Below are positions 74-61,381 of a stretch of DNA of 64,000 nt, one piece after another. The stretch spans positions 6,829,489 to 6,893,488 of the forward strand of contig CM119265.1 of the NCBI GenBank assembly GCA_051294375.1, written 5' to 3'. Every line of letters begins with the position of its first letter. The first letter of the stretch is position 1. The position numbers were made by a program, and so were the translations under genes. Source of the stretch: Paraspadella gotoi. Its lineage: Eukaryota > Animalia > Chaetognatha. The notes below the pieces were generated by a model, which saw nothing but the letters and a program-made list of their open reading frames with translations, was not told where the DNA came from and did no database searches.

Positions 74-3000
74 ATGAAAGGCGTGTTTTACAGTTTCGCG
101 GAGGCTTTTGATCAACCTCAAAAATTAAATGCGACTCCCATAATTTGGGTAGACCCCACAAAGCCTCTTTTTCGTGTTTCGATAGCTTGGTCTTCCTCCG
201 TGTATACAACTGACCCTCATCTTCATGCTTTTTTCGAACATTGCGGGATGCTGAACGGAGGCCTGGTCGATTATGTTGCCACTGATCAGTTAGTAAAGGC
301 TCTCCATGCTGTCGAAATCTCCACTGTTGTCCGATTTTTATGCCCACTTTTGAATCAGCTTTTTCAGCTTCTTTGTCGTACGGCCCTTCCTGAGTCCGTC
401 GCCTTGCAAATACTTCGTTTGCTGGTTCACATTCTTGGACAACTGTCCGACTTGAAAAAATCCCACTTTGCACGGGCCTACGTAAAGTACGTTTTCGATA
501 TATCTATTATCCCTGGACGAGTCCAAGGTACTGATTACAACAACAACAAAACTATACACGAAGAGTTGATCCGATGCATGAGACAATTGTTGGATCATTA
601 TGCACTTTTAGATACCCAGTTACTCTCTGCATTTTTCTCTCATGCATGGTTTTTCTTTCATGTCAGTCTTAAATCTATGGCACAGTTTTTGCAAAGAACA
701 GGACGCAGTCGGGATTCTCATCGCGATGTTAGATTTCCTCAGGAGTTACACAACAACATTATGTCATTGTTCCGAAAATTGTGCGACCGAATTCGCATTC
801 ACAGCCAACGTGGCAAATCTGCTCATGAAGAAGGGCGCATCGCCAATAAGTCTATGGCCCAGTTTGTAAAGCGCGCTTTTTCTTTCATGGATCGAGGGTT
901 CTTGTTTAAAGTAATTAACGAATTTGTTGATGAATTCTTGCCAGGGGATCCCAAGCCTCTATTTGAGTACAAGTTTGAGTTTTTACGAATCATTGCACTT
1001 CAAGAACATTTTATTCCTCTTAATTTGCCAGTTATGAGAAGGGGCTTTGTTCGAAGTTTTCCGGAACTTCAGCAGGAATTCTGTCTAACAGAAAAATTTT
1101 GTCGGACACATTTTTTAGTTGGGATTTTGCTAAAGGAAATTCAGAGCGCCCTTCGAGAAGTTGGCGAAATTCGCCTCTTAGCCATTCATTTGTTAAGAAA
1201 TATTTTAGCAAAACACTCTTATGACGATCGCTATCGATCAACAGAAAAACAAGCGCGAGTCGCGTCTCTTTATGTTCCTTTTATTCAAGTAATTTTGGAG
1301 AATAAGCCGAGACTGATGATCCGCGAAGAAGAAGGACAAGAGCTTTCGTCGGGTAGTCGTTATAGCATGGCGCCACTGGCTTCTCCAGAAGACACCGGAA
1401 GCAAGCGGCAATCGTACAATGGAGAGGGGTTTGACATAGGCTCTCTTGGTCCACCTCCGCCCATTCCAGAGGTGAGAACGACCAAAGCGAACACTATTGG
1501 AAGTTCAACGCCCACTGCTAGCGGAGGAAAAAAATATACTGGTGAAGGTCCCCCTTCGACGCCCGGTACGCCAAAGCCTCATCTAAAATCAAGTGGTCGT
1601 GAATCTTCTTATTTGGCCATGATTGCTGGTAGTAACAATGCCACAATCCCGAACAATTCTACCGCTCTGCTTACTGGGAAAAAAGGAGGGGATTCGATGT
1701 CCTCATTGAACAGCAGCGAGTCTTTCCCATCATCGTCAGAAGGATTGGCATCACCTCGACATGATTCTGTATCGTACGACCACGTCAGCGCCACTCCATT
1801 GACCTCTCCTGTTACGGACAGTGGAGTTTCTGTTCTCTCTGAAACTAGACCGCCTACTGGCCCATTTAGACGCGGTTTACAGAGAGGATCGGGCGCTTAT
1901 TCTCAACCCAACTCTACCAGCAACAACGTTGAATCACCTAGCAACACTACTGTTGTTCGATTTGACAAGTTTGAGCCTGGAGAAATCCGCGATCTTCTTA
2001 TCTGCTTTTTGCACATTGTCAAGAGCGTCAATGACGACGTTATTATTGGCTGGTGGACGCAAGCCAGCGAGTACGAGATACTTGATTTTTTTGGCATCCT
2101 CGAAATTTGCCTGCATCAGTTCCGCTATCGTGGACGTCAGCGAATTCTCACGTCTCCCTCGTCCTCACCGAGTCATAGTCCGGACCCGAGATCACAGACG
2201 TTACCTCCGAGAACCTCGAACCCACTTTCGGAAACACAGCGAGGATTGTATCTGAGCAGCGTTTTTGGTGAGCCAAAGGGAGGGTCCGATTATCTTCCAA
2301 AGGGATTTGCTCCTACCAAGGGGGACTTGGAAGCCGCGCATAGAGTCATGCAAGAAGGGAATTTGTCCTCGGAAGTTGGGACCATCGTTTTAGACATCGT
2401 ATCTGTTTATATGAGTAATTTCAAGGAAAAACTTGAAGATAATTGCGGTGACAACACGAAGATGAGAAAGATTTTCGACATTCTTATCTCCCTTTTGCAT
2501 TCAAATCTGCAGAGTGAGATGGTTGTTAAGCACGCTTTTGCCTCGCTTAGAGCCTACGTGAAAAAATTTCCTTCTTTACTTTTTCACGGAAATCCATTGT
2601 TTTGCCGAACGCTTTGTTACGAGCTTTTAAGAAGTTGCAACGCTTGCTTGTCGTCGACTCGCAGTGAGGCCTGCGGTTTGCTTTATCTCCTGATGCGCAG
2701 CAATTTTGAATTTAGTAAACGACGTGGATTTACTCGAGTTCATTTGCAAGTCATTATCGCGGTTTCTCAGTTGATATCTGAAAACGTAGGACTTAGTGGA
2801 ACGCGATTTCAGGAATCCCTTTCATTTGTAAATTCCTACGCCAATAGTGATCGGCACATGCAAGTAACCTCCTTCCCATCCGAGGTAAAAGACCTGACTA
2901 AGCGAATACGCACTATATTAATGGCCACCTCGCAGATGAAGTATCATAAAAACGATCCGGAGATGCTGGTCGATTTGCAATATTCGTTGGCTAAGTCGTA

Positions 3001-4414
3001 CGCTTCTACTCCAGAATTGAGAAAAACCTGGTTAGACTCCATCGCAAAAATTCATATCACTCACGGAAACTATTCCGAAGCTGCCCTGTGCTACATCCAC
3101 ATTGCAGCTCTCATCGCTGAGTTTCTCAGGCGTCGTGGACTTTTGGAAGAGGGCGGCGCAGTTTTCTCCAAAATCTCGCCCAACATTGTGCCGGAAGAAA
3201 TGGGCGTCAAAGATGACGTCGTTGGAAGCTTAGGTACCGTCGACGCGACTGGGTTGCAAGAACAACTGTCATTCAGCGATTTAACTATGGTAGAGCAACT
3301 TGAAACGGCAAAAAATTTTCTTGTCAAGGGCGAACGGTTCGAGGCACTGGGCGAATTGTTTCGTATCGTTCTACCAGTTTATGAGAAGCATCGTAATTTT
3401 GTCGCACTGGCGGAGGCTTATAAATCTCTTCATCTTGCATATCAAAACGTGAACCGGATCATGACTAGTGGAAAGCGTTATTTGGGCCGATTTTTCCGGG
3501 TCGCATTTTACGGACAACCGTTTTTCGAGGAAGAAGACGGTAAAGAATACATTTATAAGGAACCGAAGGTAACATCCTTGACCGAAATTTCAAATCGCCT
3601 GTGGAAACTTTACGGTGAAAAATTGGGTCAAGAAAATGTCCGCCTAATTATGGATTCTAAAAAAGTTGATGCTGCGGAATTAGATCCAAAATTTGCTCAT
3701 CTCCAAGTCACCTTCGTCGAGCCTTATTTCGACGCCGCTGATTTTACCGAACGCGTCACGTATTTCGAGAAGAATCACAATATTAGACGCTTCGTTTACG
3801 AGACGCCTTTCACTAAGGACGAAGGCGGACGAGCACGAGCCGGGAACGTGGATGATCAGTGGTTGAGGCAGACCATTTTGACCACGGATCAGGCCTTTCC
3901 TTTCGTTAAAAAGCGTATCGTAGTTGTTTACCGGGAGATTAAAGAACTGTCACCGATCGAAGTCGCTATTTTGGAGCTGAAACGTCAAGCTGAAGGTCTG
4001 AGCGAACTTAGTGCCCGAGATCCACCCGATTTGGTTCAGTTGCAACTTCGACTTCAAGGTTCGGTGGCTCCGCAAGTCAACGCCGGAGTACTTGCCTACG
4101 TTTCTGCGTTTTTGTCGCCGCATAAAGTCGCATGCTTTGACTCCGCCATGGTCGACTTTCTCCGTGACACGTTCCTTGGTTTTCTTACGACTTGCGCCAA
4201 TGCGCTCGAAGTGCATTGTAAGCACGTGCCTGAGCAGCAGGAGGAATACCACGCCTCTCTTGTCCAACGTTTTGATAAGATGCGTTCGAACGTTGCCGAG
4301 ATCCTGGGAGGCGGTGAGACGAGATCCGACAGAAACGGACCGGTGGCTAACTTGGCACCGGTCGCTGATAACGAGTGCGTCGACAGATTGCTTGGACCTG
4401 ATTCTTGTGCTTAA
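74..4414 (+). CDS. DOCK9: Dedicator of cytokinesis DOCK-D family (DOCK9/10/11, Zizimin), C-terminal part including the DHR-2 GEF domain; 5' end lies upstream of the window
   Basis: 1446-aa uninterrupted ORF with DOCK-D motifs (WFFF..LKSMAQ, DPEMLVDLQYSLAKSYASTPELRKTWL, YIYKEPKVTSLTEISNRL, LQLRLQGSV..VNAG). The ORF-track Met is probably internal. Confidence 0.9.
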   Translation: MKGVFYSFAEAFDQPQKLNATPIIWVDPTKPLFRVSIAWSSSVYTTDPHLHAFFEHCGMLNGGLVDYVATDQLVKALHAVEISTVVRFLCPLLNQLFQLLCRTALPESVALQILRLLVHILGQLSDLKKSHFARAYVKYVFDISIIPGRVQGTDYNNNKTIHEELIRCMRQLLDHYALLDTQLLSAFFSHAWFFFHVSLKSMAQFLQRTGRSRDSHRDVRFPQELHNNIMSLFRKLCDRIRIHSQRGKSAHEEGRIANKSMAQFVKRAFSFMDRGFLFKVINEFVDEFLPGDPKPLFEYKFEFLRIIALQEHFIPLNLPVMRRGFVRSFPELQQEFCLTEKFCRTHFLVGILLKEIQSALREVGEIRLLAIHLLRNILAKHSYDDRYRSTEKQARVASLYVPFIQVILENKPRLMIREEEGQELSSGSRYSMAPLASPEDTGSKRQSYNGEGFDIGSLGPPPPIPEVRTTKANTIGSSTPTASGGKKYTGEGPPSTPGTPKPHLKSSGRESSYLAMIAGSNNATIPNNSTALLTGKKGGDSMSSLNSSESFPSSSEGLASPRHDSVSYDHVSATPLTSPVTDSGVSVLSETRPPTGPFRRGLQRGSGAYSQPNSTSNNVESPSNTTVVRFDKFEPGEIRDLLICFLHIVKSVNDDVIIGWWTQASEYEILDFFGILEICLHQFRYRGRQRILTSPSSSPSHSPDPRSQTLPPRTSNPLSETQRGLYLSSVFGEPKGGSDYLPKGFAPTKGDLEAAHRVMQEGNLSSEVGTIVLDIVSVYMSNFKEKLEDNCGDNTKMRKIFDILISLLHSNLQSEMVVKHAFASLRAYVKKFPSLLFHGNPLFCRTLCYELLRSCNACLSSTRSEACGLLYLLMRSNFEFSKRRGFTRVHLQVIIAVSQLISENVGLSGTRFQESLSFVNSYANSDRHMQVTSFPSEVKDLTKRIRTILMATSQMKYHKNDPEMLVDLQYSLAKSYASTPELRKTWLDSIAKIHITHGNYSEAALCYIHIAALIAEFLRRRGLLEEGGAVFSKISPNIVPEEMGVKDDVVGSLGTVDATGLQEQLSFSDLTMVEQLETAKNFLVKGERFEALGELFRIVLPVYEKHRNFVALAEAYKSLHLAYQNVNRIMTSGKRYLGRFFRVAFYGQPFFEEEDGKEYIYKEPKVTSLTEISNRLWKLYGEKLGQENVRLIMDSKKVDAAELDPKFAHLQVTFVEPYFDAADFTERVTYFEKNHNIRRFVYETPFTKDEGGRARAGNVDDQWLRQTILTTDQAFPFVKKRIVVVYREIKELSPIEVAILELKRQAEGLSELSARDPPDLVQLQLRLQGSVAPQVNAGVLAYVSAFLSPHKVACFDSAMVDFLRDTFLGFLTTCANALEVHCKHVPEQQEEYHASLVQRFDKMRSNVAEILGGGETRSDRNGPVANLAPVADNECVDRLLGPDSCA

Positions 4415-5160: not shown

Positions 5161-6674
5161 ATGGCTTCAATAGCAGCCGTAGCATTACGGCGTCAAATGC
5201 TGAGCTCGCTGCGCAAAAAGGGTCCTTCGACGAATGGACTGTTCATATCTCCTACCCGTTTGCGATCGACGGCGGTCAGTCTTGAACAGGCGCTTCTCAA
5301 TGTTCCTGCGACCCAGAGCACAACGCTGGCTAATGGACTAAGAGTCAGCTCTGAGGACTCTGGCATCCCGACTTGCACTGTCGGTTTGTGGATGGATGTC
5401 GGATCGAGGTACGTGACTAGATGGAAATTTTTTGTAAATTTTATATTTTTTTTTTGATATTTATATTTATTAGATACGAAAACGACAAAAACAACGGCGT
5501 CGCGCATTTTTTGGAACACATGGCTTTCAAAGGCACGACGCACCGAAATCAGCAGCAGCTCGAGCTCGAGATAGAAAACATGGGCGCCCACCTCAACGCC
5601 TACACATCGCGGGAGCAGACCGTGTACTACGCCAAAGCGTTCTCTTCTGACTTGCCCAAGGCCGTGGAGATTTTGGCCGATATCATTCAAAACTCGGTCC
5701 TGGGCGAGGAGGAGATCAACCGCGAAAAGTCTGTAATTCTGCGAGAAATGCAAGAGGTGGAAACCAATACCCAGGAGGTCGTTTTTGATCTTCTACACGA
5801 GACGGCGTATCAAGGAACTTCCTTGGGCAAGACTATCCTCGGCCCCACCGAGAACATCCGCAACATGAAGCGCGAAGACCTTGTCGACTTCGTCAGGACC
5901 CATTATAAAGCTCCGCGAATGGTTTTGGCCGCCGCAGGCGGCGTCGACCACAACGAGTTGGTTCATTTGGCCGAGAAGCACTTGAGCGGTCTGGACGACA
6001 AGTTCCAGGGCGAGATTCCTCTTCTTCCCGCCTGCCGATTCAGCGGCTCCGAAATTCGACTTCGCGACGACTCGATGCCCCTCGCTCACGTGGCCATAGC
6101 GGTGGAGGGAGTGGGGTGGGCTGACGCCGACAACATCCCGCTCATGATCGCTTCCACCATTGTGGGATCCTGGGACAGGACCCTCGGATGCGGACCCAAC
6201 ACGGGGTCCAACCTTGGTCGAGCCTGCGGCACTCTGAATTGCGCGCACTCTTATCAGAGTTTTAACACTTGTTACACCGACACTGGTTTGTGGGGTTGTT
6301 ACTTTGTTTGCGACGGAATGGTAATAGACGAGATGATGTGGCAACTACAAACGGAGTGGATGCGTCTGTGCACTATCGTTACCGATCAAGAAGTCAACCG
6401 CGCCAAAAACATTCTCCGCGCCAATCTGTTGCTCCAACTCGATGGTTCGACGCCCATTTGCGAGGACATTGGTCGTCAAATGTTGTGCTATGGTCGTCGC
6501 ATCCCTTTGCCCGAACTGGAGGCTCGAATCGATGAGGTCAACGCGGATATTGTACGGGAAGTTTGCAACAAGTATATATACGATAGATGCCCCGCTGTAG
6601 CCGGGGTCGGTCCAGTCGAGCAATTGCCGGATTACAACCGCACGAGAGCGCAGATGTATTGGCTGAAGTATTGA
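5161..6674 (+). CDS. PMPCB: Mitochondrial processing peptidase beta / UQCRC1 family (M16); exons 5161-5408, 5474-6674
   Basis: Arg-rich presequence, [24 protein letters not shown] (HxxEH zinc motif), [17 protein letters not shown] intron 5409-5473 restores GSRYE. Confidence 0.93.
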
Positions 6675-6944: not shown

Positions 6945-7204
6945 ATGACTAGCAAAGAGTCTAACGGCGACAGCTTGCAGGGTGGTGACGCTATCCCCGG
7001 CAACGGCCACAACAACCTTCCCGTCTACATCCCCCACCCGACGACCGGGGGGACTACTTCCGCCGAGGCGACGCCCCAAAAGCACGGCGCCGCTCAACAG
7101 ATTGCAGCGCCGGCGTCGGACAAAATTGCCAGCGAATCTGAAGATGAGGGCGAGGATAGCGAAATTTTAGAGGAGAGTCCATGCGGGAGATGGCAGAAAC
7201 GGTA

Positions 7205-7254
<50 letters not shown>

Positions 7255-9200
7255 AGATTTGTAGTCAAGAGAAATGCCAATTGAGAAAAGAGCATTGTTT
7301 AATTCAAAGATTCAGAAATTGACCTTGTCGAAATTATCATAAAAAGCAAGCAGTTGGAAAGGGAGAGGAGATAGGTGGTACATAAATTAAAATTACCCCC
7401 AAAAATTTGTTTTTACCATAACGAAATGTAGATTTCAAATTCTTTTATAATAACTAAACATGGAAACCTTCCTCTTATACCTACACAGGGACGAACGTGT
7501 TCCTGGTCTGAACTTGAACGAGTCCGACGTGTCTTACCTGGCGATGGACTCGGAAGAAGGAGTCGAAGTCGTCTGGAATGAGACTTACTTCAGCAGCTTG
7601 AAAAAACTTAACGATCAGAAAGACAAAATTCAAAAGGTTTACGATCACCTCATCGCCCTCGAACACGCTAATATTGGACGGTTTCACGATTACTGGATCG
7701 ACACCAACAGAGAGAAGCCTCGTGTCGTTTTTATTACAGAGTACATGTCGTCCGGTAAGAACATTTCATTTCCTTTTTTAATTTTTTATATCCGTCCCCG
7801 GTACCATTCTATAATCAATTAATTATATATATATATATATATATATATTTTTTTTAGGAACGATGAAGCAGTTTCTTCGCAAAACGAAGAGTAACAAGAC
7901 TTGGAAACGATGTTGTTCCCAAATTCTCTCCGCCTTGAGTTACCTCCAGAGTTGTAATCCGCCTATTATTCATGGAAACCTTAACTGCGACAACATCTTC
8001 ATCCAACACGACGGTCTAGTCAAGATCGGACCCGTCGCCCCTGATGCTATCCAGCTGCAGTACATGCCGGGAAAGCACGTTCTTGTTTCCTCCATGTCAT
8101 CGCGGTAAGATGGTTTTATTTTTCCCGGATTAAAAGTGATAAAAATAGAAAAATCTTATTGATCATCTCAACCTCGACTTATGTACAGGACTGAAAAGAA
8201 AAACCTTCATTACGTCGCTCCCGAGTACGGCAAGGCTCAGCCATTGACGACGGCCTCAGACATTTACAGCTTCGGAATTTGCGCTCTCGTCATGGCCTGC
8301 CCAGAATTGCTTCAGGGAGGAGAAGAAAACAAACTTGGGTCATTAGCCAACTTGCAAGCGACAATCGTAAAAATCATTAATCCTTTGCTGGTAGAACTCA
8401 TTCAAAAATGCGTCCATGAAGAGCCAACGAGGCGTAGCGACGCCATCCACCTTCTGTTCCATCCAGTCTTTTTTGAGGGTCACTCGCTCAAACTCTACGC
8501 CGCCCACACTGTCGTCGGACTTGACATGGCTGAGACTTTCAGCCAACAGCCTCTTGTCAAGAAGATCAAGGGTCCCTTCACCGCCGAAGCTATACGTCAC
8601 CGTCAACCGTACGTGATCCAAGGGAAGGCATCTTGGAAGCTGGACGTCGAGCAATATTTGGAAGACGTCAAGATCGGCGCACATCCTTTATCCTTTTTCG
8701 ACAAAGCGAGCAAGAAGCCTTCGAACCAGAATCAAGCCATTTCCACGACGCGATCGCAGACACCCGAAGACCCCTACACCCACAAAATCGCTGGTGGCGA
8801 AGAGGTCGTCACTAACGGAGCCATGACGGCCGAAATTGTTTCTTACGAGGCCGAGGTGCGCGAGGTGCAACAGATGTCCTGTTCGATTCTCCCGCGTGAA
8901 GAAGGTGCATTCACTTGGAACTTGACGTTGCTTCTCCGTTTGGCCGATAAGATGAATCGACAACTGACTTGCGACATCGACATTGAAGAAGACACTGCCG
9001 AGTGCCTTACCGACGAACTTATTCACTACGGGTTTATCAGTAAGATAGACAGGGATAAAGTCAAACATTTTCTGGATCAAAGCTTTCAGCGTCTCAATAT
9101 GCCGCAATCCCATTCACGAGGGCCCCAGGAACTTGGCGATGCGGTGTCCAGCGTGAAAACTCCTTTGCAGCAGAAACCCGTTGCCCAGAGTGATTGTTGA
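6945..9200 (+). CDS. NRBP1: Nuclear receptor-binding protein (NRBP/Madm pseudokinase); exons 6945-7201, 7489-7754, 7858-8104, 8189-9200
   Basis: EILEESPCGRWQKR, YLAMDSEEGVEVVWNE, RVVFITEYMSSG, PPIIHGNL.CD.IFIQH.GL.KIG, MNRQLTC. Three GT-AG introns keep the frame. Confidence 0.9.
7207..7252 (+). repeat. Poly(T) tract of about 46 nt at the start of NRBP intron 1
   Basis: Direct observation. Confidence 0.9.
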
Positions 9201-9666: not shown

Positions 9667-12600
9667 ATGGTTAAAGTAAAAAAATCGAAGAAGCCCCCTC
9701 CTGAAGGTTGGGAGCTAATAGAACCCACGCTGGACGAATTAGAGCAAAAAATGCGCGAGGCCGAGGCAGAGCCTCACGAGGGAAAAAGAAAGGTTGAAGC
9801 CCTTTGGCCAATATTCAAGGTCAGCTTTGCATTATTGTAAAGTACAAAAAATATCTCGCATACAAAAACATTGACCTTATTATATAGCATTCAAACATAT
9901 TAATACTATATGCCATTCTTTTTTTTACAATTTCAGATCCATCATCAACGCTCTCGATATATTTACGATCTATATTACAAACGAAAAGCCATATCCAAGG
10001 AACTGTATGAGTTCACGATTAAGGAGGCCTTGGCAGATAAAAACCTCATAGCCAAGTGGAAGAAACAAGGGTTGGTATTTCGTAATATTGGCTAAAGACC
10101 GAATAATGTTCATAATTTTATTCGATTTATTAGTTGGACCTGCTTTATCGGTCTGTTGGTCACTCCTGACCCATATTATTTTGTCGGTCACTCACATAAA
10201 ACCTTTCGCCGACCGGGGTTAAGGATTAGGGGTTACTGTTAAGCGTGGTTTAGGGTTAAAAGGGGTTAGGGTGATGGAGTAATAATTTTTTTTTTAAAAT
10301 AAGTATTTTTAAGTGGTTTTTCAAAAGACGACAAAACCACGGTCAGCGAAAGAAAAATTTAGCCCATTAAAAGTAAAATTTTAAAAAAATATATTGAAGC
10401 GGTAGTATTTCATACCCCTTTACTCGTCCGAGAATCAACAGCACCTATGGCGGCGGAGGTAGTACGAGCTCCTCCTAACCCAAAGAACTCGGGTTCGCGC
10501 ACTGCTGATTCCCACAAAAAAGCACGACGGGCGTCTAACCCACCTTTTGTGACGGACGACGGCCCGATCCGACCTTGTATTCAAAGGACGGTCTTCCACA
10601 ATATAAAAAAAAGTTTATTTGGGTATATTTCTTTTTGTCAGTCCGTCCGTCCTTCCTTATTTTTAAATTCCAATTATTTGTGATTGGATGGATGGCTTTA
10701 GTTAAAATCTATATGTACATAGTAAAGTATGCTTGAACTTGAAATCAAGTTTCGAAGGAATCGTGGTATCGAATTAAAATTATTCTCTTTATTTACATAT
10801 TATGAATTGTGTAAGAATGCTGCAACAATAATTAGTACCATTATTATAACTATCACATCTACTACAATAACTATAATTACTTATAATAATTTACTATAAT
10901 TATGTTAATGATTACAAAAATAGTAATTAAAATTAAAATAACTTTATTACAGCCACCTACAATATATACATAAAGACAGGACATCGGCCTATAAAAAAAA
11001 AATATATATATATATATATATTCATGGCGTACCAGGCCAGAGGGACATTTGGGTGACCTTGGGTTTGTTTCCTCAGGGAACAATACCTGAGCCAGCTAAC
11101 ACGAGATCAACTCCATTGTCCTCTCAACCTATGACACGCCAATGACCCGGCACCATCAGCAATGCCTTTCCTTCATGAGACCGGGGGGGGGCCAGCTCAT
11201 TTTGAGCTCTTTCTTAAGTCTTATATATTTCACTTTAATCTTTACTTATCTATCCCTCTATTCTAAAAATCTCAATTTCAACTTTCATATATTTTTCATT
11301 TTCATTCTCTCAAATTTCAAATTAATTTATTTTCAATTTGTTATTAGACAGAATAATTCAAGTTTCTATTGCTTTTATCTTTGTTGTACATTGCCCAAAT
11401 GTAATTGTTTATATTTTCTCTCCTTGTCTCTCCCCTTCTCTCTCTCTCTCTCCCTCACTTACTCTTTCTCCAAATTTTCACTTCTTTTCACAACTTATTC
11501 AAATTGGCCTTATCTAAAATCTGTCCTCACCACTGACCACTATTCTTTCTAAATTCTTTGTTGGAAACTTTAACCTTGCTCTTCTCTCTCTCCCTCTCTT
11601 TTTCTCTTTAACTCATAAAAAATTGTTCTAATTCACAAATGCCAAGCGCTGAAGAAGGCTTATATTAATTTAGAATTCAGGGTACTTTTTGGCTAAATAT
11701 TTACTTAAAAAACGATATATAAATATATATTAAAAAATTTTGAAAATTAAAACATATGAAAAAACTCAGTATGTATCCCTATCAGAACATACAGTTCTAC
11801 TATGTAGTCTTATCTTATCTTGTCCTTATGATAAAAATAACATACAATATAACCTTAATCCCCCACATAATTATCCATTCCCCCCCTTTTTGTACTGCCT
11901 TGTAATTATGAGTTTCTCATTAATGATTTTCCAAAAGGGCCAATCTTTGTCAATGGGGTGGGTCAGAAGTTTGATTTTGGAACCTTCCCAAATGAAACTT
12001 CATACATTTCTGAGAAAACTTTCAATGGACCAAATTTTCTTTAAATGGCTAGAAGCACTAGTAATTAATTTATTAATATTTATTTATAGATAGGAAATGT
12101 TTAAACAATTTTTTTAAAATTTTATATTTTTAAAAGCAGATTCAGATAACTCATGAAAAGTGTTCTGCACAAGGTATAATTCTTTTTTCAATATTTTGAT
12201 GATAAGTGTTTTAAAATTGGGAAAAACCTAAAAAAATCATCCTCATCATTATCCGATGATTTTAGCAGTTTTTATTAATTTTTAGTAATAAAACATCAAT
12301 TTTAAAAAGTTGTAATTACATTTTTTGCCTAACTTTTTGAGCTCTATCAGAATCAATTTAAAAAAACTTAAAATAAAAAAAAATTTAACATTATATAGCA
12401 ATATAATAATTTTAATTAGTGAATTACTCATAGTTCGGAACATTTTTGCAAAAAAATCTTTCGTTGTTTTTTGTAGATTTAGAGAAAAACAAAGTTTTGT
12501 GGACGTAACAAGTTTTCAGAGTAAGAATGATTTATTCTTCAACAAGTAAATATAACGATAACAGTGAAAAGGCTCAGATGCTAAGTCTATAACAATGGTA

Positions 12601-43340: not shown

Positions 43341-43375
<35 letters not shown>

Positions 43376-46323: not shown

Positions 46324-46636
46324 TAGGAATTTTTATAAGCACATCGTTATTGCAATCCACCGCGGATATATTTAATAATATACCTTGTTACAAATATACT
46401 GTTGCTGTTTTAGGTTACCTATGAAATTTTATGATTCACGCATGAAAAAAATGAGCACATTAATATTCAACTGTACCAAAGATGTCTCCATAACTTGCAA
46501 TGAGCGTGGGCCGAGCTGGCCCTCGCCCCCCTCGTGAACGGTAATCCGGCCTTTACAAAAAAAAAAAAAAAAAAAAAAAAAACAAACAAACAAAAAAAAA
46601 CAAAAAAAAAACGAACTTTAATACTTGGTCGCCAAA

Positions 46637-49600: not shown

Positions 49601-50745
49601 AAAATAATGAATAGGAGAAATTATAATCCCTTCTTGTTTTTCTGTCCCCTCCATTCCATATGGAAAATGCTTGCAGCCACAAACCGGCGTGACTACAGTC
49701 AGTTTGCAGCTAAAAGTCTCCGAATTCGACAACAATAAGTCGTTTTCTTGTCGCGCGGAGAATCGGCGTACAAGAATCGTCCGTCAAAGTCCAGTTACAC
49801 TAAAGGTTCTTTATCCGCCCAAATGGATTAAAGGCGAGTATAAAAATATCTAGTAAGTTGTTACACTTAATCTTTAAAATATTATTAAGACGTAAAACAA
49901 CGTTTTGCAGATGGTCGGAGGACCCACTCAGCTAAAGTTGGCAGTATGAAACAACTGGTTTGTCCAATCGCTGCTAATCCTCCTGTGAACAAATGGAAAT
50001 GGTTTTTCGAAGATAAGGAACTGCCAAATTACGAATATGGTTCTACCAAAAAGTCGCCATTTAACACTTCTTTATCGTACGAACAAAGTTCAATCACCAT
50101 TAAGGAGGTAATATTTCAAATAATAATTTCACTTATGACATTTGTTAAATTTGTTTTTATTTTCAGATAACTATGAAAGACTTCGGTAATTACACATGTT
50201 CGGCCAGTAATGACAAGGGAAAAACTTGGAGAAGCTTTACGATCGTGTTGACGGTGGCGCAACCTCCAGACGACCCCATCAACTGTACGTTGGAAGATTT
50301 AAGCCCGAAGAGGGTAAACTTCGCGTGCTTGGCGTCCTTTGATGGCGGAGCTCCGCAGAACAAATACAAACTGCATATCAAAAGCGTCAATGACGAGGAA
50401 AAGGACGACATTGAAAACCTAGACCTTGACAAGGCCCCTCGCAAAAACGAACCTTTCGTAGTTTCGTACCGGGCGGCACGACCCTTGAGACGTGGCTCCT
50501 CCTACAAAGTATGCATCAATCTTTGTAACAAGTTCGGTTGCAGCAGCTGTGTAGAACGCTGGTTCCTTTTCGACGTTCCTACGACACCAGCACCGACTTT
50601 AGCGCCGGAAATTAAGCTCGGCTGCACAATTGGGTGCTCTAACAGCTCTTCTCTTTTTCCTAGCAAGGTCTTAATTTGTTATGCTTTTCTTATTTTTGTG
50701 TATCTGGATCTTATACGTTTAAAGAAGCCAACCCATCGATTTTAG
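46637..50745 (+). CDS. Multi-immunoglobulin plus FN3 cell-surface protein (nephrin/sidestep-like architecture); exons 46637-47884, 48535-49125, 49677-49833, 49911-50107, 50167-50745
   Basis: Signal peptide, repeated Ig Cys/Trp patterns (C...GSNPAPEVQW, D..AEF.C.A.N, DFGNYTCSASN), FN3-like segment (FDGGAPQ), hydrophobic C-terminal end. Confidence 0.75.
47916..48295. mobile_element. Shorter copy of the same hAT-type foldback MITE in Ig-gene intron 1
   Basis: Right end AACTTTCACTACGCCCTG; shared interior (TTGATAAAAG.AAATATAA, TATATTTTCTTTTATCAACTTTT); TSD ATCTTTAG (47908-47915, 48296-48303). Confidence 0.75.
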
Positions 50746-53589
50746 GAAAAAAGTCAAATGATTTTGATTTGCACGAATAGTTGGAGATCAAGTTTGATGA
50801 TTTTATCATTCTCGTTCATGGTGCCAATATGCGCTCCGTGTTTCAAAGTCGTATCCCTTCCCACTCTTTCTTACTGTCGCTAGATAGACGCCTGCTATGC
50901 GTCACTAAACCACTCGCAGTCGTGCCTCCTCCGCTTTTCTTTTCTCTCTCTCTCTCTTTCTCTGACGTTCTCACAATGTGCTCCGCTAAAATTCCAAAAG
51001 CACGCTCTTTATTGCTCACAATTTGGTCTGGACGATCAAATCAGAACTTGTAGTCATAATGACATCTTTCTCATTATTATGATTTTACAAATTAAATCAT
51101 CGGGCATTTATTCTGGGACTTGCCATTCAGTTGATTTGAAGGGGTCTCAGGATAATAGCTACAAAAGGTGATAAATTGTTCCTACAAATATTGTAGCAAC
51201 AGTTAATTTTTTTCTTAATCATGTGATGCGTCCTACTTCTATGATCCTCGTCATGTCATTCATGGTTATTCGCTTTTGTTATGCATGTGACAGGGAAATC
51301 TTTACTTTAGATATAGGAGCTATTCTCGAATCTGTAAAAGGTCGTTCGTAAATTTAACATATGATAAAAACGTTTCATATCTAGCTCGTTACTTTTAGTA
51401 ATTTGTTTTGAAAATTTTTTTCTTGAAAATGTTTTTTGAATGTTTTTACTTGTCTGATAATATTTTCGTAGAAAGAATTTTCTACAGGAACACTTCTTTT
51501 TAAAAAAAGAAAAACTTGCTTATGTATTGTTCGAACATGTTTCATACCATTTTAACTGAGATAGGTAAATTTCTAACTCTGTTACGAGAAATAAATAAAA
51601 GTATTTACATATCCGTCAGTCATTTAGCTCAGTAAGATATTCTATAATGGTGTACGAATCTAATAAATTTACAGATTAGCACGAGAAGTTGGATATCTTT
51701 CGTTTAGAATTTTAAACTGTTCAATTATGTTGGCACCCCTTTCGTCTCAATCTATCTTAGCCTCCGGTAAATAAATTTTGGATTTGTAAATTTTGGTCAA
51801 TTAATTTGTTATTAATGAGCAAATTTTAGGTATGACTTTTGCGTCTTTGTTTTTGTACAAATGTATGAATCATGATTGCACGAAACTCATAAAAAATTAT
51901 GTGCCTTTCCTTTTGTTTTTGTTTTCCTATGTCTTGGAAGAGTGAGTAAAGGAGTACAAATAATGCTTAATATAATGTCATTAACTGGTACATATCATAT
52001 TTATGCATTAAGTATGTTGTCGAAAATGAAAGTACACGCTACACAACCACTTTTCTTTCCCAATAGTTACGGAGTAAAATTTAGCATCTATAAAAAATAA
52101 GTTATTCAGCATATTTGAAACTAAAAAATAGATTCAAGAATCCAGGTGAAATCATCCTATTGTTTTTTGTAACTTCGTGCTACCACGGATACAGTATAAA
52201 AAATAAAAGATGCACCACGAGTCTTTATAGACTTAAGTGAGATTTTTAAAGACTAATAACAACTGGCATCGAGATTATACAGAGTTACTTACTATATGGA
52301 GAAATAATTTCGCTTGTCCAGCCAATTATCCAAATGTATCCCTCTTTCTGTAGCTTCTCTTTAAGCATGTTGCTGTTTAATTCATTGGAAGTATTCTAGA
52401 ATTAAAGTTGGCGTTTTGTGGAAAGAAATATGTAGAATACCGAGATACAATATCCTAATTTCACCGAACATGCCAGAATAATTTTTCAAAATATTGAGGA
52501 CTATCATTATTTTTGAACCGCCGAACTTCCTCCCGTTCACTCGCCTCATCGGTCCATTTTTATAATGTTTTTACCATTGTTTACTTTTTAAGCGAAGTTT
52601 TTAATAATTTATGGAATGAGGAAATTCTAATCGGAGATCAATACCCCAGGGTTATCTCTTAATCATTAAGACAAATTACTAGTTTAGTTTTACAAATTCA
52701 TTTCATTTTTGTAGTTTTTTTTTTTCATTTCCAAAAATTACCAATTAATAATAATAATACGTTTTTACCAAACATGACCGTAATTACTTAAATTGTGTCA
52801 CTAAGCAGCTGGCACAAGCTATTTAGAAATAAATCAAAAAATGTATCGTTGAAATGGTAACGGGAGTTCTTCGGTTATATTCTCTGAACTCATTTATGAA
52901 ACACAAAAATACTTGATCGCCAACTTTAAATGTTCAATTTTAGCATTTTGGTGCTCTATTTTTTTCTCGATAATTCAGAAAGTTAATATTAATAAACAGG
53001 ACACTAATGAAATTGTGCATTGTTAGCAATAGAATACGCTCTTGCCAACTTACTATTATTCAGAATTAAGTTCTATGTAACATTGTGTAATAAGCATCAT
53101 GAATATCATATTTGCCATTATCATCCTCATAATCGAATCCCCGACCTCATCGACACCAATCACGTCTTTTGGAGGATTAGAGATTTAGGTTTTAACTCTG
53201 GGTTTGATTAGTTAATGATCGAAGAACTTGATTTTACAAGTCCCGCTTTTACCAGACCTAATAAAACGCTCGTTAACACTAAATGTGTAACAAAATTAAC
53301 CAAACAAATTTGTTTTGAATCTCTCAGAATTCGACTAGCCATAATTAAAGCATAAGTTTATGATTTTTTTCATTGAATTTAATGTTTACGGAAAATATTT
53401 CCAATAGGATTAACGATTTTTCAAAAGGTTCAGTGATTTCCTTATTCCTCTTTATTGCAGATTATACCAAAAAAAGTCAATGTCAAAAATATAATGAAAA
53501 CAATATAAATTCAGGTAACTTTGTTACGAAAATCATCAACGCCGCGTAACTTGCGAAGCCTGCTAATCGTTTCAGATTGTTGCGACGAA

Positions 53590-54696
53590 ATGGATCCACC
53601 CATGTACCGTCCTGGTCGGCGAGCCGGCTCTAATCCTCCTCCACTATTTGAGGATACGAGTTCCCCTATGCCGGCTTATGGGGCGTCATATGATCCCAAC
53701 TCCTGGTCGTCTTCTTCAGCCGGGGCCGGCGGTGGCGGCGGTGTTGTCCCACCATTTGGAGTAAACGACGCTTCCGCTAACTTTTTGGATCCTGCGAATT
53801 TGGCCGCGGTCGCGGGGTTCTCTGCGCCGATGGCAGACGCCGCGGCCCAGTACGGGCAACAGTTGGCTGATCAGGGACGTGTTCATGTTGAAAAAAAACT
53901 CGAGTCTTGGTTCGCTCTATCCAAGCTCAAATACTACTTCGCCGTGGACAACGCGTACGTCGGAAAGAAACTCGGACTGCTGCTTTTTCCCTACGCTCAA
54001 AGCGATTGGTCCGTCCCTTACGACCAAGCAGAACCCGTGGCTCCTAGTCTCGCCCTTAATGCGCCCGACCTGTACGTTCCGCTGATGGGCTTCGTCACCT
54101 ACATACTTGTTGCGGGACTCATGCTCGGAACAAACAACCGATTCACACCCGAGGCCTTGGGAATGCTGTCTTCTTCGGCTATGGCATGGCTGGTGCTAGA
54201 AGTCGGGGCCGTTCTACTTTCCCTTTACGTCTTAGCTGTCAACACAGGTTAAATACTAATGTAATAAACTTGAACTAATTTTTGGTTTTTTTTCGCATGC
54301 CCAAGTATCTTTTCTGAATACTAAATATATTTTCACCGTGTCTACGCAGAATTGAAATTTTTCGACCTTCTGGCGTTCAGTGGCTACAAGTATGTCGGGA
54401 TGGTCGGCACGCTGCTTACTCACATTTTCGTGGGTGAGAGAGCTGGATACATGTTTCTGCTCTGGGTTAGTGGCTCCATATCATACTTCCTCGTTCAAAC
54501 TCTCCGGATTATGATCCTGCCGGAAGTGAATTCGAGTAACTTCGTTGGGGGTCACAAGCGGAGAATCTATCTTCTACTCTTCATCGCCGTCGTTCAGCCC
54601 TTTTTGATGTACTGGCTGACCTCTACGGCAATCAAGGCCTCCGTCACACCTCACTTTTTCGGATACTACTCGTACTACAGTGGAAAATACTATTAA
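53590..54696 (+). CDS. YIF1B: YIF1 family ER-Golgi membrane protein; exons 53590-54247, 54350-54696
   Basis: LFEDT, LKYYFAVDNAYVGKKLGLLLFPY, NAPDLYVPLMGFVTYIL, DLLAFSGYKYVG. Confidence 0.92.
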
Positions 54697-54993: not shown

Positions 54994-55911
54994 ATGGGGA
55001 GGAAAACTAAAGGATCTGGTACTTTTGTTAAATATCTCCTTATTATCTTCAACACGCTGTTCGTCCTAGCGGGACTGGCTCTATTGGTAATCAGCGTTTG
55101 GGCGTTGGCTGACGAGCAATCGCTTTCCATTGTCATTAAGACTCGCGTCTTCCTAACATTTGCCTTGGCGCTTCTAGCCATTTCCGTCACCATCATTTGC
55201 ACGGCGGCGCTCGGCTGTTTCGGCGCTGTCAAAGAGCTCAAGTGGGTCATGGTCCTTTTCAGCGGAATCCTTTTATTTTTCCTCGTCGTGACTCTCAGCG
55301 GTGTCATTGCGCTTTACATGCTGCGCCACCCAGCGGGACGCGCCATTCGTGCCTCTTTGACCTTCTCTCTTAAAGAGGGTTATCTCTCAGACCCGAAAGA
55401 TCATCAATCACGCGCTATCAAAGATTCGTGGGACTGGCTGCAACAAAACTTTCGCTGCTGCGGCGTTCGTGGCAACGTCAGCGCCGCTTACTATGCCTGG
55501 CAATACAGCCAATGGTTTCGCGACCCCCATCGAGACGACGCTCTCGTCCCAGAGAGCTGTTGCGTGCCTCGAGGACCCGGGATTGTTATCGTAGAAGGGG
55601 ATTCGACCACCTTTATTAATCGCGATAAATGCCTTGCCGTCAACAATTACACGGATTTCCGAGGACCACCGAGAACCCAGACGAAAAGTGGAGTGTGGAG
55701 GAACGATGCCATCTTCGACGAGGGATGCTACGATTCTTTCAGGAAATTTATCGGACAAGAGATGAATCTCGTGATCATCGTTTGTATTGTTGTCGCCATG
55801 ATTCTTCTGGAGGTCATAGGACTCGGACTTGCCTGCCATTTGTGTAGGCGCATCAAGTCTTACTCTCAATTGGAGCTGGAAAGCTTCACCAAAGGAAAAA
55901 GGAACTATTGA
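54994..55911 (+). CDS. Tetraspanin; single exon
   Basis: Four hydrophobic helices, LGCFGA, CCG motif, PESCC, GC before TM4. Confidence 0.9.
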   Translation: MGRKTKGSGTFVKYLLIIFNTLFVLAGLALLVISVWALADEQSLSIVIKTRVFLTFALALLAISVTIICTAALGCFGAVKELKWVMVLFSGILLFFLVVTLSGVIALYMLRHPAGRAIRASLTFSLKEGYLSDPKDHQSRAIKDSWDWLQQNFRCCGVRGNVSAAYYAWQYSQWFRDPHRDDALVPESCCVPRGPGIVIVEGDSTTFINRDKCLAVNNYTDFRGPPRTQTKSGVWRNDAIFDEGCYDSFRKFIGQEMNLVIIVCIVVAMILLEVIGLGLACHLCRRIKSYSQLELESFTKGKRNY

Positions 55912-56736: not shown

Positions 56737-57774
56737 ATGGCCCAACCTCCTTGGATCACATGGCTTGTTCTTTCTCCCGGTCCCGCTGTATGCGGTCACG
56801 TAGCCGTCGCTTGCGGTGATCGTTTGTTTGTACACGGTGGAAAGTCGTCTTCGGATCCTTCGATAAAAGATGTTCGCAACGATTTGTGGATTTTCAATCT
56901 AAAAGTCAATGCTTGGGAAACCTTCACGAGCCCACAATCTCCATACTTGTCCCAACACTGCGCCGGCCTAAGTTTCGACGGTTCTCGGATCTTCTTTATC
57001 GGAGGATGGACGGGTCACCACCGAGCCTTTGATGTTTATAGTCTTAATCTGTCCACGCTCGTTTGGTGTTCCCACAGCACAACCGGCTTTCCGACCGGAG
57101 GAGGCCTCTCCAGCTTCACTGCGACGCAACTGATATCGAAGACGCCCGGCGAAGATCTCTTCCTCATCTGCGGACGGGAGGGTAGTTTGCGAATGCAGCG
57201 GAGGCATGGGAACGCGTATCGTCTTCTTTGCCGTCCGAGCGGAGAATGTCGCTACGAGCCCCATCCTCACGCTATGGCCTCGCGTTCCGGGCACACGGCA
57301 TGCGGAATGTCAAAGACCAAGGAAATCGTTATCATCGGTGGTCGAGACGACAAGCTAGTGGAGAGGGTTTCGGGCCTGAAATCGAGACCGAAGCAAGGCG
57401 ATTCCGTCTTTCCTAATTCGTTCATCGAAAGGCTGTCGACTGTTCGTCCCATGATCAAGAGTCCAAAGGCCCGCCAACGTCACGTCGCCGTCGTCATCGG
57501 CGACGCGATTCTCATCCACGGAGGAGAAACTTTCGACGGACGATTCATCAAGGCTTCTAAAGACGTTTTCGCATTCGTCCCCGGATCGAGAACGTCGGAG
57601 GGTAAAGGCGACGAGGCTCAGGCTTCTAAGTGGTTTGCGATAGAGAGCTACGACGCGCCCAACCTGGCAAGTCACGCCGCGGACGTCGTCGAGGGCTCCA
57701 TCGTCGTTTGCGGTGGATTCACTTCCGGACCGGCTCTCGGAAGTTGTTATCAAATCAAGTTTTTAGAGAAATGA
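56737..57774 (+). CDS. Kelch domain-containing protein (KLHDC9-like); single exon
   Basis: Kelch GG repeats (LFVHGG, FIGGWTG..R, GREGSLRMQRRHG, ASRSGHT, LIHGGETF). Subfamily call is from memory of motifs. Confidence 0.75.
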   Translation: MAQPPWITWLVLSPGPAVCGHVAVACGDRLFVHGGKSSSDPSIKDVRNDLWIFNLKVNAWETFTSPQSPYLSQHCAGLSFDGSRIFFIGGWTGHHRAFDVYSLNLSTLVWCSHSTTGFPTGGGLSSFTATQLISKTPGEDLFLICGREGSLRMQRRHGNAYRLLCRPSGECRYEPHPHAMASRSGHTACGMSKTKEIVIIGGRDDKLVERVSGLKSRPKQGDSVFPNSFIERLSTVRPMIKSPKARQRHVAVVIGDAILIHGGETFDGRFIKASKDVFAFVPGSRTSEGKGDEAQASKWFAIESYDAPNLASHAADVVEGSIVVCGGFTSGPALGSCYQIKFLEK

Positions 57775-57833
57775 TTTTTTTTTAATAACTATCATTATGA
57801 TTATGAAATGAACGTTTGACTTTCAGTAAAACT

Positions 57834-59210
57834 ATGACTTGTATTAAAATTACGTAAAATTGTTAATTATTTAATTATTATCTTAGTGAAGACCGTCTTA
57901 GATTCCGCCAGCGATCTCTTCGGAAAGGGATTGTTGGAGTCGGGTCTAACTTTGGATGGACACCATGCTCCACTCACCGGACTATCAATATCATCCTTGT
58001 TCGAAGAATTTGCAATTAAGAAGGAACCAGTCAAGATTTCCGCTCCTATGGTTAGATATTCGAAACTTGCTTTCCGGAAACTTGTTCGGAAGTACGGGGT
58101 TGATTTGTGTTTCACGCCGATGATCGTTGCTGACGCATTTGTGAAAAGCGTAAGAGGTTGGACATTTGTGATAATTCACATTCTTTTAGGTTTTCATTTA
58201 GAAATAAATTGCTTTGGTATTAAAAAATAAGTTTTGATTTTAATCTCAGATTTTTATCTCGCCAGACGGGCTTTAAGATTTTTTTGTTTCATTCTTGAAA
58301 TATAAATGACAACGGCTTATCGTTAACTTATCATTAACTTACAAGCGACCATAACTTTAGTAAAGTTTTATTATTACCAATCATAGAACATTAATAATTA
58401 CTTTTGGTGAAGTTTTTTAAATTAGTATTAAATAATTTTGAAAATCATAATGTCCAAGCTCGCGACAGTGACTTTAGCACCGACCCTGCCGAAGATCGAC
58501 CTTTGATAGTTCAGTTTGCGGCCAGGGACGATGCTGAATTTGCGGACGCAGCTGCCATTGTTCGTCCCTTTTCGGACGGGGTCGACCTTAATTGTGGCTG
58601 CCCTCAGCGATGGGCTATTCAGGACGGATTGGGCTGTTGTCTGCTCAAAAAGCCACAACTCGTGCACGAAATGGTCCGCGCTGTTCGTCGTCGAGTTTCC
58701 GATCTCGATTTTAACGTCTCCATCAAAATAAGGATTTCAGATAATCTCGCCGAGACTGTGGAACTCTGCCGACGGGCGGAGGCTGCCGGAGTCGGCCTTA
58801 TCACGGTTCACGGTCGGACGCCGGCCGAAAGACATCAACCTGTTCATTTGGACAAGATCAAAGATATCGCGCGAAGCGTCGGAGTTCCTTGCGTGGCAAA
58901 CGGAGATATCCGGACATCGTCGGATGTGGTCAGCACATTTACCCGGACCGGCTGCCAAGGAGTCATGGCCGCCACGGGGTTGTTGAAAAATCCCGCCATG
59001 TTCGCCGGTTACGATATGACGCCTAAAGAGTGCATCGCGGATTGGATTAACGTCGCTCTTGACGTCGGAACACCTTTCAGCTGTTTCCATCATCATCTCG
59101 TTGACATGACGGAAAAGATTATGAGTAAAAGTGACAGAATCTTGTTTAATTCCTTGACGTCAACTTCTGCTGTTATTGAGTTTTTTCGCGAAAAATACTA
59201 CTTTGAGTGA
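57834..59210 (+). CDS. DUS4L: tRNA-dihydrouridine synthase 4-like; proposed exons 57834-57840, 57887-58156, 58459-59210
   Basis: KISAPMVRYSKLAFR.LVRKY, FTPMI, DRPLIVQFAA, GVDLNCGCPQ, ITVHGRT, VANGD. The first micro-exon is inferred. Confidence 0.88.
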
Positions 59211-59372: not shown

Positions 59373-61381
59373 ATGGCACGCGTTGAAGGATCCTTTGGGC
59401 GTTTGTCCTTCAGGATGCTCGCGATCGTCATCGCGCTTTTGGTGGCGCCGGGCGCGGGATCAGCTCTTCGAGTCAAAGATGAGAAAGATGCAGATCGGGC
59501 ATCGACGACGCCCGCTGTCGCGACTAAGGCTATCTCGGGTGCCGTGTCAAAGAAGCGCCGATGTTCACTGGAAAATGGGCCACTTGGACTGGATTCAACG
59601 ACTGATCTCTTTCTCAGAGTAATGATTGACTCGTATATAACGGGCCCCGATGGAAATCTGACCGTCCAGTCCTTTTTCCGAGTTCTGAACGTCGTTGCGG
59701 CTCGAGCGAAAGACGACGAATACCACCTCGACTCGAACCTTCACCTCTTGAAAACGTGCGAGTCAGAGCAGTCTTTTTTTTCCGAATTAGAATCTTTGAC
59801 CGTTTGCCTAAAAAATCAATGCTCAACACTGGAAGATCTCGTTAAAGCTGAGCCCGAGATATTATCCGAAGAGATCGTAGTTTGCTCGCTTTACCTTGCG
59901 GTGGAGGGGCGTTGCCGCTCCAAGAACGACAAAACGCGCGCCGAAGAAATGTATTCTGAACATAAGAAAATTCCCTGGCAACATAGTCTTGGATACGGAT
60001 CAGCCTTCACGTTCGTCATTGTTTTAGGTTCCCAGTTCGGTGGCCTGCTGTTTCCTTTTCGTCACAGTTTGGTTTACAAGATCTGCCTTACGTATTTGAT
60101 TGGATTAGCGGTGGGGACGTTGTCGGGTGGGGGCATTCTTCATCTCATGCCTCATACTTTTGGTATGGATGAATCTGAGGAAGGAGTGGAGTTTATTTTT
60201 CGTGCCTCGACTATTCTCGGGGGAATCTATTTGTTTTACATAGTAAGTACTATACTTTTAAATCGTATTCCTTTTCGCTTTGTACTCGCCGACAAAAAGG
60301 TTTCCGTCTCTTTTAGGTTGAGCGACTTCTGCGGGACTTGAATCAGTGGCGCAAAGAACGTCGTCGAATTCAAAGTGAACAATCCCGAATGCAGCAGCGT
60401 TGGGAGTTGAAGCAGGCGAATTTGAAGGTCGGTAACCGTGCTTCTACTAATGCCGAGCTGGGCCATGAGGGAACCTCCGTAGCAACACCATTATCCGTTG
60501 GTTTCGAGAACAATGTCACCGTAATACCTACTAAAGAAGCTACACCTTATAACGGTACTGTTGCCAAAACCGTTGACGTAGTTCAGTCCTCCGACGGAAA
60601 TGGCGCTCTTATCGGCGCCTCTACGCCGGTATCACCAATTTGCAATGCTGGGTTTCCAGGGGACGGGTCTCACGATTTTCTCATCCTTAAGAGAAATCTT
60701 GAGAGAGAAGAGAGTCTAGGAGCCGACTACAAATCTCACACGACCGCGGAAAACCAAGAGAAACAGCGACAACGCCGACGCTGTCCCTCGGAGACGCACG
60801 TGCAGAACGCGATGATGGAGGAAGAGAGCCACCGAGTACGTTTGCCTTCGCACACGCACGCGGAGGTCAACGACACGCAACACGAGGTTGGGGAGATCGC
60901 TCCCATCGCTTGGATCGTAATAATGGCGAAAGCATTCTCCTCTTTCATCGACGGGCTCTCCATGGGCGCCGCATTCACCGAATCAACGCTTACTGGCGTT
61001 AAAATCGCTATAGCCATCATTTGCGAGGAGTTTCCTCACGAGTTGGGCGACATCGCCATCCTGCTCAATTCGGGCATGAACTTTAAGCAGGCGCTTTTTT
61101 CCAACTTTTGCGCTGCAAGCCCGACATTCTTTGGCCTCTGCATCGGTATCGCCGTAGGCGAAAACACTGACGCCAACCCTTGGATCTTCGCTATTGCCGC
61201 TGGAATGTTTCTGTACATCGCGTTGGTTGACATGATACCTGAGCTCAACGCTTTGGGGCAGGACCTTGTCAGGTCCGGAATCAATCAGATTGTTGTATGC
61301 CTAATTCAGCACTTGGGGATGCTCTCCGGATTCGTTCTCATGCTCATTATGGCCATATACGGGAATGACATTAATGTTTGA
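59373..61381 (+). CDS. SLC39A14: SLC39/ZIP LIV-1 subfamily metal transporter (ZIP8/14-like); exons 59373-60242, 60317-61381
   Basis: Signal peptide, LAVGTLSG..ILHLMP, FIDGL..GAAF, CEEFPHELGD (EExPHE as in ZIP8/14), GMFLYIALVDM. Confidence 0.82.

Follow-up and report, generated by a model that had tools for sequence, protein, structure and literature searches.

Twenty-two co-oriented, closely packed genes in the arrow worm Paraspadella gotoi: a candidate chain of spliced-leader-resolved operons

We describe a stretch of the genome of the arrow worm Paraspadella gotoi (assembly GCA_051294375.1, contig CM119265.1, positions 6,829,489 to 6,893,488; hereafter the window, 64,000 bases with 0 N), in which 22 protein-coding genes, functionally unrelated and mostly housekeeping, lie head to tail on the plus strand between positions 2 and 61381. 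Twenty-one of these genes have a plus-strand Pfam match at E <= 0.001 (27 of 34 scanned plus-strand segments matched); the remaining one, a p23-like gene, has none, yet its intron is spliced in X1, a sequencing run considered below. No minus-strand gene was found in the window, where 0 of 126 minus-strand stop-to-stop frames of at least 70 amino acids match Pfam, a screen that a short-exon or non-Pfam gene could escape. These scans bear out the preliminary description of this DNA, which had placed all 22 genes on the plus strand. The block thus has the same-strand adjacency of metazoan operons resolved by spliced leader (SL) trans-splicing. Models of the 21 complete genes were built from open frames and GT/GC-AG borders. 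The block had been said to begin at position 74; the frame of its first gene, DOCK, is open from position 2, and 74 is probably an internal Met. Since this frame runs past the left edge, the run may extend beyond 22 genes on that side. At the other end, the final 2.6 kb of the window showed no gene.

The genes, all on the plus strand, are given here in order; unless another basis is stated, each is supported by Pfam and a gene model. The 3' part of a DOCK-family guanine nucleotide exchange factor gene (2..4414; DHR-2 lobes A-C) forms an open reading frame of 1470 codons without an intron. PMPCB, the beta subunit of the mitochondrial processing peptidase (5161..6674; Pfam M16 and named homologues; 1 intron), comes second, and an NRBP-like pseudokinase (6945..9200; kinase domains and model; 3 introns) third. 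BUD31 (9667..13367; a 144-amino-acid model) has 2 introns, the second of 3.1 kb and containing repeats; an additional BUD31 exon candidate inside a repeat was discarded as spurious. Next come the p23/PTGES3-like co-chaperone (13581..14595; model; 1 intron, the one spliced in X1), an OVCA2/FSH1 serine hydrolase (14843..15641; 2 introns), an intronless TRM1-family, TRMT1L-like tRNA methyltransferase (15717..17189), an intronless ELP2-like WD40 protein (18530..20953), and intronless ATG4 of peptidase family C54 (21036..22586). BRIX1 (23098..24188; 1 intron, spliced in X1), an intronless GDA1/CD39 nucleoside phosphatase (ENTPD; 24331..25584), and intronless CRNKL1 with HAT repeats (26217..28481) precede IFT122 (28683..34703), the most intron-rich gene of the block, with 13 of its 20 introns among the X1 joints listed.

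The right half continues with a TM2-domain, TM2D1-like protein (35243..39513; 2 long introns), an MBOAT7-like MBOAT acyltransferase (39869..44535; 3 introns), an intronless EHD ATPase (44626..46323), and a surface protein with multiple Ig domains (46637..50745; 4 modelled introns, alternatively spliced). YIF1 (53590..54696; 1 intron, spliced in X1), a tetraspanin whose coding region is intronless (54994..55911), an intronless kelch-repeat protein (56737..57774), a DUS4L-like dihydrouridine synthase (DUS; 57834..59210) of uncertain start codon, and a ZIP zinc transporter (59373..61381; 1 intron, spliced in X1), the last gene of the run in the window, complete the set. Pfam identifies families only; orthologue-level names other than PMPCB (NRBP-like, p23/PTGES3-like, TRMT1L-like, ELP2-like, MBOAT7-like, and DUS4L-like) are those we presume.

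Of the 21 complete genes, eight lack coding introns and five have a single one. The intronless set comprises ELP2, ATG4, CRNKL1, TRMT1L, ENTPD, EHD, tetraspanin, and kelch, to which the 4.4 kb of DOCK can be added; vertebrate counterparts of these genes have many exons. Such strong intron loss may point to reverse-transcription-driven loss or to retro-insertion into operons. Splicing of the Ig gene varies between 47884 and 49677: exon 1 is joined to 48535 or to 49677, and one X1 contig continues into the next intron.

The genes are closely packed. Eleven of the 21 stop-to-ATG gaps measure 59, 75, 82, 90, 142, 162, 201, 213, 247, 270, and 297 nucleotides (nt), reproducing every value quoted in the preliminary description; the other ten are 313, 355, 466, 511, 539, 632, 746, 825, 1340, and 2844 nt. 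The median of all 21 is 297 nt, nine gaps are below 250 nt, and 19 are below 1 kb. The 59-nt kelch-DUS gap assumes a start at the ATG at 57834, which shares the reading frame of the Dus domain only after removal of a 46-nt GT-AG intron (57841-57886), which an X1 contig reads unspliced; with or without it, at most 112 nt separate the kelch stop from the Dus coding exon. This candidate intron is shorter than every other intron here (59 nt and up). DUS homologues have a Met 18-30 residues upstream of the conserved motif, and the upstream stretch in the window does not align with them, leaving the start codon uncertain.

Distance between coding regions invites a reading in which only the tightest pairs or triplets are operonic, the other genes having their own promoters and being trans-spliced from outrons, with the run a local pile-up in a compact housekeeping region. 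A 250-nt stop-to-ATG rule splits the block into 13 units of 1-4 genes, and P. gotoi operons average about 2.4 genes (5,061 genes in 2,151 candidates; PMC12460157). About half of the trans-spliced genes are not called operonic (PMC12460157). Nevertheless, this reading requires about 12 independent same-strand coincidences, and the 297-, 632-, and 2844-nt spacers are covered by contigs from the upstream gene, which would confine promoters there to the inside of upstream transcripts. We consider it unlikely.

How surprising a 22-gene one-strand run is depends on the null, which we computed per 21,000 genes under three assumptions of co-orientation. The expected number of such runs is 0.005 if 50% of neighbours are co-oriented, 0.07 with the published P. 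gotoi operon fraction (the 5,061 genes in 2,151 candidates), and 3.5 if 70% are co-oriented; the last value would suit a block of short operons. The chance of about 1 in 2^21 given earlier used the wrong null for an operon-bearing genome: the run is unusual even for such a genome, but not at the 1-in-2-million level.

Evidence at the level of transcripts comes from X1, which contains 0.93 of the short words sampled from the window. The run had been classed as RNA by guess only. Two other runs, X2 and X3, contain next to no window words and matched the window in short partial stretches only, 3 for X2 and 1 for X3. We aligned X1 contigs over two stretches, 13,000-32,900 and 48,450-61,800, which together cover 14 of the 21 junctions (14 of 836 aligned pieces are listed for the first and 8 of 34 for the second). 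In the first stretch, all 15 listed joints, of 28, are GT..AG; in the second, five of seven are, and one further joint matches a GC-AG intron. Because its contigs skip introns at GT..AG joints, X1 is spliced RNA, and it comes from the same species as the window. Around 14.5-16.6 kb, approximately 14 differences between X1 and the window are listed, compared with 0 across 48.4-61.8 kb; an allelic difference near p23 is possible.

Single X1 contigs among those listed bridge eight of the 14 junctions. They carry p23-OVCA2-TRMT1L (2,882 nt, two junctions), ELP2-ATG4 (4,818 nt), BRIX1-ENTPD (2,739 nt, BRIX1 spliced), CRNKL1-IFT122 (6,325 nt, IFT122 spliced), YIF1-tetraspanin (2,442 nt, YIF1 spliced), kelch-DUS (1,474 nt, reaching the first Dus exon), and DUS-ZIP (3,032 nt, ZIP spliced). 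Splice joints are also present in five of the seven contigs that bridge junctions or cover spacers. Downstream of tetraspanin, between that gene and kelch, a GT-AG intron at 55990-56247 is spliced out in X1. All 30 depth bins are covered in each of the two stretches. Depth arithmetic leaves positions 56478-56682 (tetraspanin-kelch), 53462-53475, and five intron stretches without X1 cover; these were used neither as evidence of borders nor as a control for the absence of DNA, since holes in contigs prove nothing.

X1 contigs also extend from the upstream gene into two of the longer spacers. The BRIX1-ENTPD contig extends through the following spacer to 26174, 42 nt short of the CRNKL1 ATG. In the Ig downstream region (50746..53460, 2.7 kb), which includes an interval (50.8-53.4 kb) intended as a silent control and found to be covered, X1 cover is unbroken. 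Its sole source is a spliced Ig contig that spans 50165-53461, falls 128 nt short of the end of the 2,844-nt Ig-YIF1 gap, and stops one base beyond the best acceptor before YIF1 (53460). Because this spliced contig covers the gap up to the acceptor before YIF1, the 2.8-kb gap looks like 3' untranslated region (UTR) or intercistronic RNA. The division of the block into runs of 17 and 5 genes, as proposed in the preliminary description, is therefore not supported: it requires a cut-off between 1340 and 2844 nt, at a gap that the spliced Ig contig covers.

Of the four listed X1 contig ends found in spacers, two (26174 and 53461) coincide with the final A that follows a YAG acceptor just ahead of the next gene. 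Only 0.5% of spacer positions fit this description (binomial p ~2e-4), a post hoc value from one study that we treat as a lead and do not count as evidence. The two ends match the expectation for poly(A) added at the acceptor; a homopolymer or single-nucleotide variant would mimic it. The longest X1 contig measures 24,984 nt, whereas those of the two other runs measure 14,168 and 11,748 nt; chained operons would be expected to yield contigs of great length.

These data bear on a reading without operons, in which the genes are monocistronic in a compact genome, or the arrangement is an artefact of assembly or annotation, and bridging reflects read-through or DNA. The initial classification of X1 by guess and the lack of a leader among its listed loose ends would agree with it. 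It is contradicted by stop-to-ATG gaps of 75-90 nt, by SL-resolved operons known in the phylum, and by X1 contigs that are spliced and collinear with the window over gene borders, which argues against misassembly. We regard it as very improbable.

For sequence signals in the spacers, we derived an acceptor matrix from 20 introns confirmed by X1 and compared the best acceptor within 170 nt before each ATG with a minus-strand control. The acceptor scores higher than the control in 16 of the 21 spacers (medians of 6.0 and 3.3 bits, p=0.03), in a test whose power is low, as true acceptors span -7.6 to 10.4. A strong unpaired acceptor precedes PMPCB at 5146 (score 9.1). For the genes that follow, apart from Ig, the predicted acceptors lie at 6903, 9522/9610, 13525, 14685/14821, 15709, 18520, 21007, 23050, 24265, 26170, 28569, 35158, 39774, 44615, 53460, 54923, 56580, 57826, and 59258. 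T exceeds A on the plus strand in 20 of the 21 spacers, the sole exception being EHD-Ig (46324..46636), where A exceeds T. In that spacer, GC content also peaks higher than in any other (67% in a 60-nt patch at 46497), and a good acceptor is lacking; from these features it is the best candidate for an internal promoter. The second richest patch (63%) lies in the ENTPD-CRNKL1 spacer (25585..26216), where a GC/CpG-rich segment at ~25930-25990, upstream of acceptors at 26062, 26079, and 26170, is likewise a candidate internal promoter. If internal starts exist, these two spacers would be better candidates than the Ig-YIF1 gap. A k-mer screen of the spacers for a shared motif, run against 200 resampled sets, gave nothing that survived correction for the number of k-mers.

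Repeats are scattered through the introns and spacers. Palindromic elements resembling miniature inverted-repeat transposable elements occur at 30579-31087, 47927-48264, 61927-62247, 12708-12867, and 17320-17453, and the family at 30.6-31.1 kb has an X1 contig depth in the thousands. A perfect 58-bp inverted pair (35918-35975 and 40613-40670), 4.6 kb apart, falls within TM2 and MBOAT introns.

The link to trans-splicing runs through PMPCB. Among the 120 listed of 935 matches to its protein, ten relatives at 80-88% identity, on transcript-sized contigs, come before named animals at ~71%. In a tree with 23 named animals picked from the match list, the window protein, the ten relatives, and L001 form a 12-row group on a 100/100 branch apart from those animals. 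L001, a PMPCB orthologue from a metatranscriptome, is 83% identical and the closest full-length match among 67 loci; it is a single-gene contig, and its first 21 bases are identical to the 3' end of the chaetognath leader SL2.0 (Table 3 of PMC2481426). The orthologue of the second gene of the block is trans-spliced in a relative. Together with the literature, the clade that includes L001 places the block in a lineage with SL trans-splicing, and SL-resolved animal operons, the kind of explanation first suggested for this DNA, gain support from both; chaetognaths were among the groups that this suggestion named. A leader was seen on this one orthologue of a relative, and no counterpart was found among the listed X1 loose ends. 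Within the window, no SL RNA gene was found by Rfam (0 of 4227 families), and short leader motifs gave only scattered partial matches of 9-13 bases.

We favor, as somewhat more probable than its rivals combined, a chain of two to four back-to-back SL-resolved chaetognath operons with internal promoters. RNA polymerase II would start at a few promoters and carry several genes in a row on each polycistronic pre-mRNA; leader addition to each downstream mRNA would use an unpaired acceptor located 7-160 nt ahead of the ATG, and the upstream mRNA would receive its poly(A) tail at this site or slightly before it. The longer AT-rich spacers would then be mostly 3' UTR and not promoter space. Long spacers need not hold promoters, because the RPS14 poly(A) site and the PCNA acceptor are 3 bases apart in the RPS14-PCNA operon of Spadella cephaloptera (PMC2481426) and operonic Ciona genes abut. 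At least one unit would be six genes long or longer, and EHD|Ig and ENTPD|CRNKL1 are the most plausible places for internal starts. One operon here may exceed the published maximum of nine genes; a unit of at least ten genes, short of all 22, is a prospect we put just below an even chance. Such a block could have grown by accretion, since a same-orientation gene that lands downstream with a splice acceptor would need no promoter of its own. The mechanism is known, in a phylum known to use it, and the length is what is unusual. Co-orientation, packing, and contig cover are direct observations, and the leader was seen on one orthologue in a relative; from these we infer co-transcription, where the 3' ends lie, and how many promoters there are.

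Several points weigh against this explanation. By stop-to-ATG distance alone, the longest sub-run has 4 genes (<250 nt), 6 (<500 nt), or 10 (<1 kb). At the 12 junctions with wider gaps than 250 nt, closeness of upstream 3' end and downstream acceptor would depend on 3' ends that contigs do not fix. Six of the 14 junctions have no bridging contig among those listed (BUD31-p23, TRMT1L-ELP2, ATG4-BRIX1, ENTPD-CRNKL1, Ig-YIF1, and tetraspanin-kelch). A two-gene contig is not a single transcript: overlap of a 3' UTR with a 5' outron, read-through, or DNA in X1 is equally able to produce one, and X1 is one run from one study. Both polycistronic precursors and long 3' UTRs would agree with the X1 contigs and are proven by none of them, because contigs are not molecules and give neither strand nor ends. 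The acceptor test is weak and confounded by T skew, and acceptors are poor before p23, EHD, and Ig. The leader evidence comes from a single gene of a single relative, 1 of 67 loci, the others having no leader motif near an end, and the lineage assignment comes from a single gene tree that includes no named chaetognath (nor a named rotifer). No published chaetognath leader was found on the X1 loose ends (12 of 171 listed in one stretch, 6 of 7 in the other); these leaderless ends are no evidence of absence, because contig assemblies can drop such joints. The YIF1-tetraspanin contig starts (window 53476) with 30 purine-rich bases that belong neither to the window nor to a published leader, at a poor acceptor; a distant exon, a different donor, and a chimera are possible origins. 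Another contig begins with 31 unaligned bases at 13597, within the first codons of the p23-like gene.

The same evidence can be pushed further, to a whole block of at least 22 genes and more than 60 kb transcribed as one unit from one upstream promoter, as a kinetoplastid-like directional cluster. The lack of any minus-strand gene found in 64 kb, the full set of covered depth bins in both X1 stretches, the spliced contig that crosses the longest spacer up to the next acceptor, and an expectation of only 0.07 such runs per genome from the published operon fraction all agree with it. They are opposed by published maxima of 6-9 genes, by the two spacers with GC/CpG-rich patches and the Ig gene without a good acceptor, and by the Ig product itself, a surface protein of a kind reported to be depleted from chaetognath operons (PMC12460157); moreover, a bridging contig is seen at only 8 of 21 junctions, 14 of which the X1 alignment covers. 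Trans-splicing of all genes, as in a cluster of kinetoplastid type, does not fit the published P. gotoi figure of 10,197 of 21,072 genes, or about half (PMC12460157). A single unit is thus improbable here, and the chain of a few operons remains our preferred account.

The question matters for the maximum length of animal polycistrons and for the puzzle that half of chaetognath genes are trans-spliced and 18% operonic; the block offers 21 defined junctions on which to address it. If it were one unit, with each mRNA polyadenylated directly at the leader acceptor of the following gene, it would be more than twice as long as the longest published animal operon that we found, long 3' UTRs would hide operon length from distance rules, and many trans-spliced chaetognath genes now regarded as non-operonic would be downstream cistrons. 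If long units exist, no animals would come closer than arrow worms to the gene organisation of trypanosomes, and counts of animal operons based on distance would be too low. If they do not, the block is an ordinary, though dense, example of the published system. Our search, which fell short of most subscription papers, found no published animal operon of more than nine genes and no long one-strand run in chaetognaths. Across the three PDF supplements of PMC12460157, operons are mentioned once and strand not at all, and the published P. gotoi operon list may already contain parts of such a block.

The closest known systems are chaetognath operons. In P. gotoi, 18% of genes lie in operons, which are enriched for metabolism genes, were called with a 250-bp rule, have no operon-specific leader, and reach nine genes (PMC12460157); in Spadella and Flaccisagitta, leaders and one operon have been published (PMC2481426). 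The block shares with them the phylum, unrelated housekeeping genes head to tail, short gaps, and a leader on the orthologue of one member. It differs in scale: the published mean is ~2.4 genes and the maximum nine, whereas 22 genes are co-oriented here over 61 kb, with contig-covered spacers of up to 2.7 kb. The nine-gene P. gotoi operon contains ribosomal, ubiquitin, and proteasome genes (PMC12460157), all of which are absent from the block.

Operons of Ciona intestinalis have up to six genes, 38% of them single-exon (PMC2760879), or seven by SLOPPR (PMC7986045). The block resembles them in its many single-exon genes (8 of 21); in Ciona, however, the abutment of an upstream 3' end on a downstream acceptor has been demonstrated, whereas here we infer it, and Ciona is a chordate with a single leader and at most 6-7 genes per operon. 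Conserved housekeeping genes are a feature shared with Macrostomum lignano, Caenorhabditis elegans, and Oikopleura. Macrostomum operons reach nine genes, and those of C. elegans two to eight as cited in the same source; repeats inflate Macrostomum spacers to the point that a 1-kb repeat-adjusted rule was needed (PMC8629364), and a 500-bp rule was applied to Oikopleura (PMC11067885). Unlike the block, Macrostomum and C. elegans operons have maxima of nine and eight genes, and C. elegans uses the operon-specific leader SL2, a kind that chaetognaths lack. Finally, the directional gene clusters of trypanosomes, in which all protein-coding genes are polycistronic (PMC7986045), likewise consist of unrelated genes in long runs on one strand, with a leader resolving them, as proposed for the block; in contrast to them, the block keeps its cis-introns (20 in IFT122), and only about half of chaetognath genes are trans-spliced.

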